Below are positions 6,372-51,101 of a DNA stretch of 64,000 nt, one piece after another. The notes under the pieces were generated by a model, which was not told where the DNA came from, ran no database searches, and saw only the letters and a program-made list of their open reading frames with translations. The position numbers and the translations under genes are program-made. Each line of letters opens with the position of its first letter. Position 1 is the first letter of the stretch. Source of the DNA: a virus (lineage: Duplodnaviria > Heunggongvirae > Uroviricota > Caudoviricetes); IMG/VR virus record IMGVR_UViG_3300030294_000676; one strand, written 5' to 3'.

Positions 6372-6674
6372 TTATAATATATTTATATAAGGTAAATATT
6401 GTTTTGCTTTTTGTAATAATTCAGGTTTCTTTTCCATAGTAGCCATTACGGTTATTAAAGATTCTGCTCCAAATTCATTTACAATTATTTGAACTGCTCG
6501 TAATAAAGCATATCCTTCTGCTTCACTTTTAATAACTGCTCTAAAAGTTAACTCTTCAACCATAGGATATGTTATAGGTTTTAAAGTTCCTGTACCTTGA
6601 ATTGCTTCTGATGCAGGTATTTTTGCAACGGGTAATTGAATCCCGTCTGTATTTATATTTGTATTCTCATCCAT
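6372..6674 (-). CDS. hypothetical protein (100 aa)
   Basis: ORF track. Confidence 0.55.
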   Translation of the reverse strand: MDENTNINTDGIQLPVAKIPASEAIQGTGTLKPITYPMVEELTFRAVIKSEAEGYALLRAVQIIVNEFGAESLITVMATMEKKPELLQKAKQYLPYINIL

Positions 6675-6679
6675 AATTT

Positions 6680-6716
6680 TTTAATAAAAAAGGAAGGAGT
6701 ATTACCCCTTCCTTAA
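6680..6716 (-). terminator. intrinsic terminator-like hairpin
   Basis: aaggaagg-agtattacc-ccttcctt (6690..6714) immediately after the stop of 6724..6927, followed on the minus strand by a U-rich tract. Confidence 0.5.
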
Positions 6717-6723
6717 ATAATTT

Positions 6724-6927
6724 TTAATTTTCACATTTCAAGATTTTTAAAATCTCACAGTCTTCAATAACATAAGTATCCATCACATCACTTGTAGGCT
6801 TACCTAAAGTTTCGAGATAATGTTTTCTTATTTTATTTCGTTCTTCCATAAGTATTAATTCAATAACTTTTACTAAAGGAATTTTTACATAGTCTTCAGT
6901 CATATTATTAAATTTTATACGTTTCAT
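6724..6927 (-). CDS. hypothetical protein (67 aa)
   Basis: ORF track. Confidence 0.5.
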   Translation of the reverse strand: MKRIKFNNMTEDYVKIPLVKVIELILMEERNKIRKHYLETLGKPTSDVMDTYVIEDCEILKILKCEN

Positions 6928-7234
6928 AAATTGCTAACGTACTTCCTGCTGCAGCTGAAATTGCCATAAAAGATGAAATAGAGTTTGTTTCAAAAGCTTC
7001 ACCACCTTCTTGAGATGATGATGCTGGAAATAATTGAACTTCATAATCAGTTGGAGATACAATAGAATAAGCTCCTTTTAAAGGAATTTTCTTCAAATAA
7101 ATTATATTCGGACTGGTATTTTGAAATCTAACATTAACTCTTTTTCTATTTTTTTCGACTACAATTGTAGCAGTAGTTCCTATTGTAATTGGGCTTGCCA
7201 TAATTTTAATTTTTTTTAAAATTATTTTAAACAA
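6908..7234 (-). CDS. hypothetical protein (108 aa)
   Basis: ORF track. Confidence 0.5.
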   Translation of the reverse strand: MFKIILKKIKIMASPITIGTTATIVVEKNRKRVNVRFQNTSPNIIYLKKIPLKGAYSIVSPTDYEVQLFPASSSQEGGEAFETNSISSFMAISAAAGSTLAIYETYKI

Positions 7235-8012
7235 CAGCAGTAGGAGTAAAGTGAGCTAAAATCGTACTTAATAGATATTGATTTTGTTCGTTATTACTTA
7301 CTTTACCGTTTGCAGTAGCAAGTTGATCACGTAAACTTTGAACATTCAAATCATTAATTAATGCACGAGTTGCTCCACCATCAGCAGCAATTGCTGATTT
7401 TATTTCACAACAGCATTGAGCCATTGCCATTGCATTAGCTGTACCTTGTGATATAATTTGATTTGTAGCGTTTTGATTTTGCATTGCTGCTCCATTAAAA
7501 CCTTGTAATGTTGTAGTTGTTAAATTATTAAATGAATTTAATTGTTGTAACTGACCTTGATTACTTTGTGCAGTAATATCACGACCTAAATCGTTAATTC
7601 CTTGCAAAGTAGTAAATGCTGATGTAGCTTGTGCTGTAGAAAGATTAGCTACCGAATTTAAAATGTCAGCAGAACTATTATCTATAGCGCTGTTAACTCT
7701 ACGAAATTCACTATTCAAGATACTATTTAAGTCACCAGAAGCAACTTGAGATCCTAAATTAGTAATTTGTGTTTGTAATGATTGAAAAGCAGGATTAAGA
7801 ACAACGTCAGTTGCTACAGCTGTTGCTGCAGGAGCTGCTCCGTATCCATTACCACCCCAACCACCACGATTGCCGAATAAACCACCTGCTAATGCTCCAC
7901 CAAGACCACCAGCTAAAAGTCCACCAAGAACTCCACCTCCAACGCCTAAACCTGCGCCAGATCCTCCTCCGAAATTAGGCATCGGAGTTGTGCCATCTAA
8001 TGTAAGTGCCAT
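7227..8012 (-). CDS. hypothetical Gly-rich / Gln-Asn-Ser-rich protein (261 aa)
   Basis: N-terminal about 60 aa is nearly pure Gly/Ala/Leu (GGGSGAGLGVGGGVLGGLLAGG...). Then a Q/N/S/T-rich region and an unusual QCCCEIK motif. Confidence 0.55.
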   Translation of the reverse strand: MALTLDGTTPMPNFGGGSGAGLGVGGGVLGGLLAGGLGGALAGGLFGNRGGWGGNGYGAAPAATAVATDVVLNPAFQSLQTQITNLGSQVASGDLNSILNSEFRRVNSAIDNSSADILNSVANLSTAQATSAFTTLQGINDLGRDITAQSNQGQLQQLNSFNNLTTTTLQGFNGAAMQNQNATNQIISQGTANAMAMAQCCCEIKSAIAADGGATRALINDLNVQSLRDQLATANGKVSNNEQNQYLLSTILAHFTPTAVV

Positions 8013-22012: not shown

Positions 22013-22017
22013 TTTGC

Positions 22018-22096
22018 TCCCCCAAGGAGGACTCGAACCCACATGTCTCTCGACATATTCCGAAGAATACGCGTCTGCCAATTACGCCATTGGGGA
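22018..22096 (-). ncRNA. tRNA-like RNA with normal acceptor, D-arm and T-arm, but with two tetraloop hairpins (UUCG and GAGA) in place of an anticodon arm
   Basis: TCCCCAA-TG-GCG...CGC, then TATTC-TTCG-GAATA and ATGTC-GAGA-GACAT, then T-arm GTGGG-TTCGAGT-CCTCC and TTGGGGG. Confidence 0.45.
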
Positions 22097-22102
22097 ATTT
22101 AG

Positions 22103-22191
22103 TGGGGGCGGAGGGCTTCGAACCCCCATGTCTCACGACCGCTATGGTCTAACCTATATTTAGCTGCGGCTACCAATTTCGCCACACCCCC
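22103..22191 (-). tRNA. Leu-type (type II) tRNA-like with non-canonical anticodon loop ATATAGG (apparent anticodon ATA)
   Basis: Acceptor GGGGGTG/CGCCCCC, D-arm GCG-AAATTGGTAGC-CGC, 4-bp anticodon stem CTAA/TTAG, T-arm GGGGG-TTCGAAG-CCCTC. Confidence 0.45.
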
Positions 22192-26046: not shown

Positions 26047-26526
26047 TTATCTATTATTAATAATATTACTAATGGTTCCTTTACTACTAATATTATATTT
26101 TTCCATAATTTCTTTATAAGTATGCCCTAAATTTCGGTATGCTTTAATTTCTAAAACTAATTCATCAGAATATTTTTTATTAGCATTAGATGCAATTCTA
26201 ATTCTTTCTTCTTTAGGTTTATCCATCATATTATCACTATATGATCCAATTTCAATATTATCCCAAGAATTATTTAATCCGTTACCATCTAAATGTCTAA
26301 CTACTATATCTTCGTTAAAAATAATTTCTCCAAATTTTTGATATGCTTGTAATCTATGTACTTTAACTGGAATATGTTTTTCATTTAATCTAATATTAAA
26401 TTTTTTATAATTTTTATTATAAATAGTTCCTGTTAAAATTTTTTCTTTAGGATTTAAAATATCACCATTTATAGTTATTTTATATCCTTTTTCAATTGCT
26501 AATAATTCATTTTTACTTCTTTCCAT
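26047..26526 (-). CDS. HNH homing endonuclease (about 159 aa; start moved to an internal Met)
   Basis: VVRHLDGNGLNNSWDNIEIGSYSDN (HNH), with a C-terminal DNA-binding-like tail. It abuts the tRNA-like element at 26531. Confidence 0.65.
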   Translation of the reverse strand: MERSKNELLAIEKGYKITINGDILNPKEKILTGTIYNKNYKKFNIRLNEKHIPVKVHRLQAYQKFGEIIFNEDIVVRHLDGNGLNNSWDNIEIGSYSDNMMDKPKEERIRIASNANKKYSDELVLEIKAYRNLGHTYKEIMEKYNISSKGTISNIINNR

Positions 26527-26530
26527 ATTG

Positions 26531-26607
26531 TACCTACTCCTGGGATTGAACCAGGCTGTCACCAAATAACCTTTCAACAAGATATAAGCTTGAGGGTATA
26601 AGTAGGC
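26531..26607 (-). ncRNA. aberrant tRNA-like (76 nt). Good acceptor and T-arm, but no canonical D-arm; internal hairpin CAAG-CTTATAT-CTTG
   Basis: GCCTACT...AGTAGGT acceptor, T-arm CCTGG-TTCAATC-CCAGG. The middle does not fold as a cloverleaf. Confidence 0.4.
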
Positions 26608-27580
26608 ATAAAAAATCTCTTTATTCACTTTAAGCAGAGTGGAATAATTATATTGACTTAGGTCATAACGAAGGCTTTTCTGCGAACACTAACCATATCA
26701 TAACTACATTTACCAAAACATTCAACCACTGCTATGGTTTATAACCTACGTACTCAACTTTCGTCCTTACCCCTTATTGGGTTGGGTGTCTCCCCCTGGT
26801 TACCGTTTTGCTTCAATTAAAGAGATTTTATTTGTTCAACTTAGAGTAGTCACGGCTACCTCTGATCTCTAAGTCTAATACTAACAGTGGCAAAATGTAG
26901 CTCGACCCTAGTTAGTTTTGTTAATTGGTATGGGCAATAACTTTATAAGTTAAGACTACAACCCCATCTTTGATGGTTTATTCTATCGTAGCTAATAATA
27001 AATAAACCTAGTTGTACTCCAAGCTGGACTTGAACCAGCGACCCTCGGTTTAGAAAACCGATGCTCTATCCACTGAGCTACTGGAGCATTTTAAAAATGA
27101 GTAACGGGAGGGACAATTACACGCATGTTATCCACGGGACTACACCTACATCTTTTCGTTAGGGATATCTGGACTTAATTCCTCATTCTAAGTCAGCATT
27201 GGGTTCCCCTCTTACCTGACTCACCGACCATTCTCGGATGTTACTCATTTAATTTTTAAAAATATTGATGTGCTATTACGCCAAAGGGATTTCAGTCCTT
27301 ACCAGTTACGGGGTGACCTCCAACTTACCTTACCACATTAAATTCCAACTTGAATTGGTTTATCAACGTAGTCTCGTCCCACTCTTTAGATGATTGCTGC
27401 TTCCAAGCCAACATTTCAATATTTTATATTTTAAAAAAGATATACTAATTGCGATTGTATATTATAGAAACATCATCGACGATAATAAATTACCATTCTA
27501 GATATAACATTCACCAATACTTTAAATACGGAGGAATTCCAGAGTCACTTCCCTCATATACAATTAGAGCCCTCTGGACC
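26608..27580 (-). ncRNA. ORF-free, GC-clustered structured region (about 970 nt) embedding tRNA-Arg. Candidate large structured ncRNA (GOLLD/ROOL-like) or intron-like element
   Basis: Stop codons in all six frames. Base composition unlike the flanking AT-rich coding sequence. Long-range complementary pairs, e.g. AAATGAGTAAC...GTTACTCATTT around 27090..27250, and many GC-rich hairpins. Confidence 0.4.
27015..27087 (-). tRNA. tRNA-Arg (anticodon TCT)
   Basis: Anticodon stem TCGGT/ACCGA, loop TTTCTAA, T-arm GCTGG-TTCAAGT-CCAGC. Confidence 0.8.
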
Positions 27581-27795
27581 TAGACTGTTTCTTCTTTTAA
27601 TTTTTTATTCCATTTTAAAAATCCTCTAATATTTAAAACTGTAAATGCTAAATACATTATAACTATTGAAATCATATTCCAGAATAATATTATTCCAAGA
27701 ATACTTCCAATTGCTCCAAGTATGAAGCCAATTATTCTCTTATTACTTATCAAATAATAAGCGTATAAGTTTAAAATCATTAAAATCCAATCCAT
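27580..27795 (-). CDS. small membrane protein (71 aa)
   Basis: ORF track. Two transmembrane helices. Confidence 0.5.
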   Translation of the reverse strand: MDWILMILNLYAYYLISNKRIIGFILGAIGSILGIILFWNMISIVIMYLAFTVLNIRGFLKWNKKLKEETV

Positions 27796-27998
27796 TATCT
27801 ATTTGTTTAAGTTTTAAAAAGGGTTGGGTATATAGTAGAACTTTAATCAACTTATACGTTTATGAATTACACATAATTGCTATCTACCACCCTTTATTTT
27901 AACATCCCTCTCTGCCGCAATCAAGTTTCGGCTGTCTTGTGCTTTGTTTGAACCATTATCAATTGCCGATTTATGGTCACAGAGTTGAGGATATTTAG

Positions 27999-28071
27999 TT
28001 GCGAAGGAGGGAATTGAACCCCCGACCTCAAGGTTATGAGCCTTGCGAGCTACCACTGCTACCACTTCGCG
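27999..28071 (-). tRNA. initiator tRNA-fMet (anticodon CAT)
   Basis: Near-identical in layout to E. coli tRNA-fMet: CGCGAAGTGGTAGCAGTGGTAGCTCGCAAGGCTCATAACCTTGAGGTCGGGGGTTCAATTCCCTCCTTCGCAA, with the C1:A72 mismatch and variable loop GGTC. Confidence 0.8.
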
Positions 28072-30231: not shown

Positions 30232-30639
30232 TTAATGAATTGTTTGTAATATACTCACACAATCAGCAGCTTCTTTTAAACCAAAACGTGATATTTCTTT
30301 AAGAATCTTTACAGCTGCAAGTTTAGAACCAGCATCAAATTCTGTTATTATTCTATCAAGTTCTTTATTATCAACACTATAACCAAAATCAGTATTGACT
30401 TTTGTGATTTCTTTTCTTAATGCAGAACGTTTTGTAATACGTAAAGATAATACAGCATCAAGACCTGCGTCAACTTCAGGTTCTGTGTTATTAGCATTAT
30501 TAGCTTCAGTTAAATCCAATGGAATTCCTGCAGCCATACCTTTAAGTAATGTGATTAATGCGGAATTAAATCCAACATCCTTATCATTCTTAGGATTCGT
30601 AATCAACGCTCCTATTATATATTTCTCAATATCAGTCAT
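30232..30639 (-). CDS. hypothetical protein (135 aa)
   Basis: ORF track. Confidence 0.55.
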   Translation of the reverse strand: MTDIEKYIIGALITNPKNDKDVGFNSALITLLKGMAAGIPLDLTEANNANNTEPEVDAGLDAVLSLRITKRSALRKEITKVNTDFGYSVDNKELDRIITEFDAGSKLAAVKILKEISRFGLKEAADCVSILQTIH

Positions 30640-36471: not shown

Positions 36472-36486
36472 TTAATTTCAATTTAA

Positions 36487-36893
<407 letters not shown>

Positions 36894-46063: not shown

Positions 46064-46149
46064 TTCTTTTTATCATTTTGTGTTTAACCTACACGAATTG
46101 TGTAACGCACTAAGCTTAATAACTTTATACTCCCTTAGTGGAGTTAAAA

Positions 46150-51015: not shown

Positions 51016-51101
51016 TATGGATAAAAGGATTTGAACCTCCGACCTCCGGCTAATGTTTTTGTCTTGCTGCCGACGCTCTAACCAGGCTGAGCTATATCCA
51101 A
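51016..51101 (-). ncRNA. tRNA-like RNA with canonical acceptor, D-arm, variable loop and T-arm, but an expanded 18-nt anticodon loop
   Basis: TTGGATA-TA-GCTC-AGCCTGGTT-AGAGC-G-TCGGC-[AGCAAGACAAAAACATTA]-GCCGG-AGGTC-GGAGG-TTCAAAT-CCTTT-TATCCAT. Confidence 0.45.

Follow-up and report, generated by a model that had tools for sequence, protein, structure and literature searches.

The subject of this report is the minus-strand segment 26527-27579 of a 64-kb stretch of AT-rich DNA from an uncultured large phage (IMG/VR record IMGVR_UViG_3300030294_000676, 64,000 nucleotides; hereafter the window). Comparison with related phages resolves this segment into several small genes for structured RNAs, lined up within a phage tRNA operon, rather than a single giant RNA or an intron. 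One of these genes, a 167-nt module at 27259-27425 (-), reproduces the GTPase-associated centre (GAC) of 23S ribosomal RNA (rRNA) almost exactly in sequence and shares its three-helix fold. The explanation that we favour, and consider reasonably probable, is that the segment holds RNA modules of a tRNA operon among which this GAC-mimic RNA most likely acts as a decoy for a ligand of the ribosomal centre.

Using an E. coli rrn operon (L058) as the reference for 23S comparison, we found that the module is identical to 23S 1054-1085 at 29 of 32 positions (90.6%, E=5e-6), and that a further element, GCGUAAUAGC, is identical to 23S 1088-1097, the H44 hairpin with its GUAAUA 1095 loop. These two intervals are helices 43 and 44 (H43 and H44) with the 1067 and 1095 loops, and nt 1051-1108, comprising the end of H42 together with H43 and H44, form the established 58-nt binding domain for uL11 and thiostrepton. 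The best match within the family described below, from L049, agrees with 23S at 34 of 35 positions (97%, E=3e-13). When complete E. coli genomes were searched with the 5′ part of the module, it hit 23S rRNA genes only, at a median of seven places per genome. The module is the sole rRNA-like segment in the window, and the remaining modules of the segment showed no significant similarity to 16S or to other parts of 23S. A genuine 23S gene or gene fragment was ruled out, as no flanking 23S sequence continues on either side of the module in the window.

The module, read in the sense of the minus strand, begins with the 5′ strand of a closing helix, P1 (AAAAUAUUGA, 27416-27425), which pairs with UCAAUAUUUU (27259-27268) as an inverted repeat and corresponds to the rRNA closing helix 1051-1055/1104-1108. 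Next come the H43 copy including the 1067 loop (AAUGUUGGCUUGGAAGCAGCAAUCAUCUAAAGAGU, 27381-27415), which provides the BLAST match to E. coli 23S, then a lineage-specific arm of 98 nt (27283-27380) whose ends pair as GGGA/UCCC, and finally the H44 copy with the 1095 loop (GGCGUAAUAGCACA, 27269-27282), in which GCGTAATAGC equals 23S 1088-1097. The arm is inserted at about nt 1086/1087 and interrupts the H43/H44 junction (about nt 1082-1087). Inserts of 73-354 nt were measured by script in 14 family members, and that of L045 is shorter, at ~40 nt by reading the printed sequence; the inserted sequence differs between lineages. The module thus has in common with the 23S GAC H43 and the 1067 loop, the UAAAGAG junction strand, H44 and the 1095 loop, and the three-helix arrangement with a closing helix, and differs from it in being a stand-alone phage RNA with an unrelated, covarying closing helix, an arm of 40-354 nt and, in the metagenomic copies, the substitutions A1064G and U1098A.

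The closing helix provides the clearest comparative evidence for the fold. In alignment A5, which comprises E. coli and 12 phage sequences with the inserted arm excised, all nine P1 pairs have changed on both sides among the 12 phage rows. Of the cells, 88.3% are paired, compared with 74.6% in shuffled and 27-59% in slid controls, and the covariation score of 0.405 (0.167 when shuffled) was reached by none of 500 shuffles. The helix takes forms as different as AUAUUGA/UCAAUAU, AGAGGG/CCCUCU, ACUUGG/CCAAGU, CUAUUGUG/CACAAUAG and AUAGAG/CUCUAU. The second pair of the H44 stem also covaries (C-G, U.G and U-A), and H43 is nearly invariant across the family. Because G.U pairs in P1, and in hairpin P2 of a second module treated below as the Y-family RNA, would be A.C mismatches on the opposite strand, the sense strand is minus, that of the tRNAs. 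In the diverged relative L016, only the ends of the GAC-mimic block are kept.

Scanned for the 5′ end that copies of the module share (25 specified bases), IMG/VR yielded 13 contigs from large phages, representing 10 distinct versions. All 13 start (G)GAUGUDGGCUUGGAAGYAGCCAUCAUYUAAAGAGU, and nearly all end UUUGGYGUAAYAGCACAC, the exceptions being L045 (UUUAGCG) and L050 (one A fewer). With L010, L004, L016, L045-L057 and cultured phages as members, the family includes at least eight distinct versions of the closing helix in phages of different hosts. The cultured phages came from a search of GenBank phages with a 37-nt core, which matched Cronobacter phage GAP32, Pectobacterium phage CBB, Yersinia phages fHe-Yen9-03 and fHe-Yen9-04, Xanthomonas phage XaC1 and Ralstonia phage RSP15; in none of these does an annotated feature lie under the match. 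The full RNA with a paired closing helix is present in GAP32, XaC1 and RSP15, lying at about 289,510-289,760 of JN882285.1 in GAP32 and at about 312,930-313,200 of OR258281.1 in XaC1; CBB and the two Yersinia phages have core matches only. Paenibacillus phage Pd_22F and short records were excluded from the family, as they carry real host 23S sequence. At its end the Pd_22F genome (L061; MZ092003.1, about 82.8-84.0 kb) has a long, unbroken run of genuine 23S, for which carry-over of host DNA and real capture are both possible.

At most metagenomic loci the GAC-mimic RNA lies within a tRNA array, sometimes in very tight apposition to its neighbours. The closing helix of L049 runs from the 3′ end of one tRNA to a point 4 nt short of the next; that of L010 stops 5 nt short of tRNA-Arg, and the L046 RNA is succeeded at once by a tRNA. 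Downstream, every inspected locus has a tRNA or a hypothetical ORF (open reading frame), and none has a ribosomal-protein gene. Two side observations concern the neighbouring tRNAs. A tRNA of L049 (332-407) has the anticodon CTA of an amber-reading suppressor, is labelled tRNA-Pyl by ARAGORN and hints at stop-codon recoding. Directly after the GAC mimic of RSP15 (L060, about 1815-2040) stands an unannotated tRNA-like gene in which acceptor stem and T arm (GCGGGUUCGAUUCCCGC) are split by an internal insertion of ~200 nt.

Some family members are longer, at ~400 nt, and in these L046-type RNAs the insert holds UAGUACGAGAGGA, the sequence of the 23S sarcin-ricin loop (SRL), within a hairpin. Such SRL-bearing GAC mimics were seen in L046 (about 6896-7300) and in its relatives L047, L048, L050-L052, L054, L056 and L057; in L052, L054 and L057 the GAGA tetraloop reads GGGA, which alters the base equivalent to A2660. 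The window itself has no SRL sequence.

The whole segment is non-coding. Under the standard code neither strand of 26527-27579 holds an ORF of at least 60 aa, none of that length arises when TAG, TGA or TAA is recoded as sense, and these alternative codes create no ORF of at least 100 aa in the region. An earlier note made from the sequence alone had described this as the only long stretch of the window without an ORF; it is indeed ORF-free, but it is the longest such gap rather than the only one, spanning 1194 nt without an ORF of at least 80 aa compared with 333-578 nt for ten others. The note was right that its composition is unlike that of its flanks, with a G+C content of 0.34-0.43 across the region compared with 0.19-0.30 in flanking coding DNA, and the complementary segments it placed about 140 nt apart are an exact 11-bp inverted repeat, AAATGAGTAAC and GTTACTCATTT (27095-27105 and 27240-27250), with 134 nt between the arms. 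It had also proposed an Infernal search and a comparative covariation analysis as checks. The former, run with Rfam 15 over 26400-28000, returned a tRNA-Arg as the sole match both at gathering thresholds and at E<=10, with zero matches to GOLLD, ROOL, HEARO, group I or II introns or RNase P at E<=10; the latter revealed covarying helices in the GAC-mimic RNA and in two further modules, the C motif and the Y-family RNA. Smith-Waterman comparison found no paralogy among the modules apart from the shared ends of the Y-family RNA and an extra module of L010, no module is repeated elsewhere in the window, and the region has no iterons or tandem repeats.

Relatives of the segment establish that its parts are separate units. 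An exact-protein look-up of the flanking 71-aa ORF identified eight identical or near-identical contigs (L001-L003 and L005-L009) and two relatives at ~80-90% identity (L004 and L010), and variants L011-L017 were added from other anchors and one metagenome scan. As protein anchors, the 71-aa and 128-aa ORFs retrieved near-identical relatives only, and no close relatives of the window lineage were found in INPHARED or IMG/VR. In L014, L015 and L017 the stretch equivalent to window 27608-26925 is missing, and the 71-aa gene is followed by a different tRNA-Arg(UCU) and then directly by block C. An extra module of ~210 nt present in L004, L010, L014 and L015 is missing from the window, and module X (27095-27250) is confined to the window lineage. 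Since sub-blocks are gained and lost independently, the segment is not a single RNA of ~950 nt but an array of separate minus-strand modules; a contiguous conserved RNA of several hundred nt was likewise ruled out by the independent presence and absence of blocks in L004, L010 and L014-L017. Coding DNA of L004 agrees with that of the window at 87-93% identity, several non-coding blocks agree at 98-100%, and the spacers between conserved blocks are indel-rich, at ~50% identity. These comparisons show that selection on the non-coding blocks is stronger than on the neighbouring genes. Other collection scans gave chance matches in coding DNA only, in L018, L024-L026 (bacterial metagenome-assembled genomes), L027 and L028, as did a pattern scan for the Y-family RNA (L029-L044).

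The C motif (26838-26915, -) consists of two hairpins, H1 (CUAAC/GUUAG) and H2 (GACUUAGAG/CUCUAAGUU), with the invariant loops UAGGGUCGAGCUACAUUUUGCC and AGAGGUAGCCGUGACU. Its stems are replaced by AUAUCAUAA/UUAUGAUAU and AACUCAGAG/CUCUGAGUU in L016, and by UGUGA/UCACA and UUGGAAA/UUUCCAA in the unrelated, higher-G+C phages L019-L023, with the loops kept in each case. The two loops are mutually complementary (GCUAC/GUAGC plus GUC/GAC); both are invariant, so that this pairing is predicted only. In the window group the motif always comes after tRNA-Arg(UCU). In L019 (2183-2553), and also in L020-L023, it lies inside a 371-nt ORF-free RNA between tRNA-Gly(UCC) and tRNA-Asp; further hairpins of this larger RNA covary among three variants, and it has no match in Rfam or among GenBank phages. 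The tRNA upstream of the C motif is itself variable. In L015 (1458-1542), and in the same form in L014, an 85-nt tRNA with anticodon UCU and an apparent long variable arm replaces the ordinary tRNA-Arg(UCU), and in L017 a third kind of tRNA-Arg(UCU) stands just upstream of the motif.

The Y-family RNA (26612-26829, -; 218 nt) has its own closing helix P1, the conserved elements AUUGAAGCAAAAC and GAAUGUUUUGGUAAAU, and hairpins P2 (26741-26803, variable), P3 (26724-26739) and P5, the loops of P3 and P5 being complementary. Compensatory changes among the window, L010, L015, L016 and the paralogous extra module of L004 and L010 affect P1, P2, P3, P5 and the P3-loop/P5-loop pairing, and G.U pairs fix the sense as minus. 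Neither the C motif nor the Y-family RNA belongs to an Rfam family. On the strength of covariation in aligned relatives, we regard the two as new structured RNA folds of the same operon. A resemblance to RNase P in the loop-loop helix of the C motif and in CACAACGAACAAAGCUUAUUA and AGUGAAUG of the Y-family RNA was considered and rejected, as the topology differs and 296 nt searched at E<=10 gave no RNase P match.

The other elements of the segment are less widely conserved or less clearly structured. Module X (27095-27250, -; 156 nt) is G+C-rich, is closed by the exact 11-bp helix given above and lies directly 5′ of tRNA-Arg. Spacer S1 (26916-27013, -) is variable, being poorly conserved in L004 and L010 and absent from L015, L016 and L017, where the C motif comes directly after tRNA-Arg. 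Block A (27519-27579, -), which comes immediately after the 71-aa ORF, is non-coding and conserved, being ~100% identical in L004 and L010 and 91.6% identical in the diverged L016, and may form a hairpin or pseudoknot (UCCAGAG/CUCUGGA). In L016, block A is contiguous with the counterpart of window 27892-27949, upstream of the 71-aa ORF. That ORF (27580-27795, -) is PnuC-like, with a match to NMN_transporter of 26.1 bits, just under the cut-off, and looks inserted into a conserved non-coding block. L016 has a further 480 ORF-free nt (6515-6995, -) downstream of its Y-family RNA, with closing helices of its own such as AAUUAGC/GCUAAUU and no counterpart in the window.

The tRNA genes and the endonuclease gene reported by the earlier note were all found where it had placed them. 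tRNA-Arg(UCU), with TCT in the DNA, lies within the segment at 27014-27087 (-) and is recognised both by ARAGORN and by Rfam (69.1 bits). The aberrant tRNA-like element at the edge (26529-26607, -) has a good acceptor stem and T arm and degenerate D and anticodon arms; it does not form a full cloverleaf, is missed by default ARAGORN and by the Rfam tRNA model at E<=10, and is called by ARAGORN only in metazoan-mitochondrial mode or, with other boundaries, in the mode that allows introns. L010 has a normal tRNA(CAU) at this site, directly followed by tRNA-Cys. In the window, the gene for a 159-aa endonuclease (26047-26526, -; Pfam HNH_3, E=4.6e-8) stands between the decayed tRNA and tRNA-Cys. 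This gene is absent from the equivalent site of L010, which retains the RNA blocks, indicating that it is a free-standing insertion; L017 keeps both. An association of the HEARO or IscB omega RNA type was considered and rejected, as there is no Rfam match and the adjacent protein is a 159-aa HNH_3 endonuclease.

These results bear on what the segment could be. That it is non-coding and structured and stands among phage tRNA genes, as the earlier note supposed, is borne out, but a single ornate RNA of ~950 nt of the GOLLD or ROOL type, embedding tRNA-Arg, is very improbable. Such an RNA would account for a long, ORF-free, G+C-richer region beside phage tRNAs with several long-range complementary segments; it fits poorly with the lack of any GOLLD or ROOL match at E<=10, with sub-blocks that come and go independently, with modules that each have their own closing helix and are separated by indel-bearing spacers of ~50% identity, and with the separate occurrence of the C motif and the GAC mimic in other phages. 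A group I or II intron carrying the HNH gene as its homing endonuclease, the alternative raised in the same note, is harder still to credit: the gene is adjacent and the edge element resembles half a tRNA, but neither the group I P3-P9 core nor group II domain V was matched at E<=10, tRNA-Arg is intact, so that nothing is spliced, the edge element is a whole decayed tRNA rather than a split exon, and the HNH gene lies between tRNA genes, L010 keeping the RNA blocks without it and L017 keeping both. We give equally little credence to an element acting at the level of DNA, such as a replication origin, packaging site or endonuclease target. An ORF-free island with inverted repeats in an AT-rich phage might suggest one, but G.U pairs are tolerated on one strand only, iterons and tandem repeats are lacking, and conservation tracks RNA helices and loops.

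A captured, functionless fragment of host 23S rDNA, with decaying tRNAs or junk making up the other blocks, is improbable as well, if slightly less so than an ornate RNA. Phage records can hold host rRNA, as Pd_22F illustrates, H43 of the window contains a mismatch, and a decayed tRNA lies nearby. Such a fragment would not explain, however, why nothing of 23S beyond the 58-nt domain is there, why this domain always has a new covarying closing helix while both hairpins stay fixed, why the blocks are more conserved than coding DNA, or why at least eight closing-helix versions occur in phages of different hosts and the stems of the C motif and the Y-family RNA covary too. The serious rival is a role in cis, in which the modules would act on the tRNA operon itself as processing stalks, folding chaperones, or sites of antitermination or uL11-dependent regulation; we think this unlikely, though considerably less so than any of the foregoing. 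It is favoured by the position of the modules on the tRNA strand and their tight linkage to tRNAs, with the C motif after tRNA-Arg(UCU) and the GAC mimic often before tRNA-Arg, by the likeness of the long closing helices to the RNase III stalks of rRNA operons, and by the well-established existence of ribosomal-protein mRNA leaders that regulate in cis by mimicking rRNA sites. On the other side, the nearest 1.2-1.5 kb around the GAC mimics of GAP32 and XaC1 is free of tRNAs, no inspected locus has a ribosomal-protein gene downstream, and a near-perfect copy of both loops, with the SRL added in some, exceeds what a processing stalk needs.

The explanation that we prefer, a decoy acting in trans, starts from the ORF-free stretch as a segment of a minus-strand tRNA operon in which small RNAs with compact folds are encoded between the tRNA genes, independently of one another. 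A terminal helix closes every module, and A/U-rich linkers or tRNAs border it, which makes release by tRNA-processing enzymes most likely, and RNase P and RNase Z would presumably cut the modules from the polycistronic tRNA precursor. Once freed, the GAC mimic probably functions as a decoy of the ribosomal site, with uL11, the stringent factor, a translational GTPase or a ribosome-targeting host toxin as candidate ligands; it would keep its ligand off host ribosomes during infection, or alter the action of the ligand there, and the longer SRL-bearing relatives would imitate the whole factor-binding site. We favour a decoy because both functional loops are kept almost base for base, because some relatives add the SRL and so complete the factor-binding site, and because the position of the RNA is not the one expected if it regulated ribosomal-protein genes in cis. 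On this view, endonuclease-driven turnover of the tRNA array has left the HNH gene and the decayed tRNA as by-products. Put in general form, large phages may encode free-standing GAC, or GAC plus SRL, RNAs from their tRNA operons as trans decoys that soak up uL11 or the stringent factor, blunting the starvation alarm, or that absorb immune toxins attacking the ribosome; this broader proposal we offer only tentatively, as one that could well be wrong.

Several points weigh against this explanation or parts of it. Minimum-free-energy z-scores are no better than those of shuffled sequence on either strand (+0.41 and +0.10 for minus, -0.41 and -0.33 for plus), and single modules, at -0.45 and -1.25, display no unusual thermodynamic stability; the evidence for structure is comparative, drawn from alignments, and not energetic. 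For module X no homologue was found, and its structure has no comparative support. The insertion in the GAC mimic sits in the junction of the tertiary contacts that hold the domain together, and a compact GAC fold with uL11 binding is therefore not guaranteed. The window's H43 has one G.A mismatch (the pair in columns 20-34), and the metagenomic copies, that of the window included, share the two departures from E. coli at 1064 and 1098; GAP32, XaC1 and RSP15 keep an A at 1064. Punctuation by tRNAs is not universal, GAP32 having no tRNA within 1.5 kb. What the RNA binds, and how the phage gains from it, is purely our inference, and any decoy would be up against tens of thousands of competing ribosomes.

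Known systems resemble the GAC-mimic RNA in part. Autoregulatory mRNA leaders of ribosomal proteins, such as the L10 leader and the L1 site on the L11-operon mRNA, mimic rRNA binding sites, and like them the GAC mimic imitates a site at which rRNA binds protein. Those leaders are cis-acting 5′ elements with a small motif, however, whereas the GAC mimic stands in tRNA arrays, reproduces a whole domain and has no ribosomal-protein gene downstream. The tRNA cluster of phage T4 encodes stable small RNAs, the species 1 and 2 RNAs (rnaC/rnaD). By description, the modules are like these non-tRNA structured RNAs among same-strand phage tRNA genes, presumably matured by the tRNA machinery: all tRNAs and modules of the window are on the minus strand, and tRNAs flank the GAC mimic directly in L049 and L010. 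We expect no sequence relationship between the modules and the T4 RNAs, and know of no report of rRNA mimicry by the latter. GOLLD (RF01998) and ROOL (RF03087) are also structured phage RNAs near tRNA genes, but each is one RNA of 600-800 nt, unlike the independent modules of 80-220 nt in the window, which match neither model. Finally, Munishkin and Wool reportedly showed in 1997, in a 'ribosome-in-pieces' approach, that synthetic GAC and sarcin-ricin domain RNAs bind EF-G. The phage RNAs are comparable in presenting GAC and SRL as free factor ligands, the L046 type combining both sequences in one molecule, and would be a natural version of what were laboratory constructs.

Searches of the openly readable full-text literature turned up no phage RNA reported to mimic rRNA or the GAC, and such an RNA is not among the models of Rfam 15. 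None of the closest systems fits as its family. Phages are known for tRNAs, tmRNA and a few ribosomal proteins, and not for pieces of rRNA under selection as separate genes. A stand-alone GAC copy points to a new form of viral interference with translation control, the stringent response or ribosome-directed immunity, and a decoy, if that is what it is, would represent a new class of phage counter-host RNA. The GAC mimic also offers a compact natural ligand for uL11, thiopeptides and translation factors, and as culturable phages of Cronobacter, Xanthomonas and Ralstonia, and probably of Pectobacterium and Yersinia, carry it, the idea is directly testable. The window adds two further covarying RNA folds without an Rfam family.

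Across the window as a whole, the minus strand carries 24 tRNAs called by ARAGORN, one found by Rfam only (51016-51101) and a tmRNA. The window also encodes NAMPT/NUDIX NAD-salvage genes and a Met-tRNA formyltransferase; one window protein occurs on contigs of up to 213 kb. A 135-aa protein (30232-30639, -; C-terminus DAGSKLAAVKILKEISRFGLKEAADCV), encoded 3 kb from the GAC mimic, resembles the C-terminal domain of ribosomal L7/L12 at a score below threshold (E=4.2e-4, 21 bits, cut-off 25.9), and no homologue of it was found near other GAC mimics. Phage-encoded bL12 domains are known (PMC6375957), and both bL12 and uL11 proteins encoded by phages are on record (PMC6375957, PMC13157829). Three odd tRNAs were also noted on the minus strand (22016-22097, 22102-22191 and 51016-51101), one with a 2-nt 'anticodon' and one a tRNA-Tyr with anticodon ATA; the third, at 51016-51101, scores 47.5 bits with Rfam and is missed by ARAGORN. 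The tmRNA (36485-36893, -) carries the tag peptide GNKTISFARTAFMAAA and has diverged copies in L004 and L016, and a Pistol self-cleaving ribozyme (Rfam RF02679) is present at 46083-46144 (-), with a score of 41.6 bits against a gathering threshold of 34.5.

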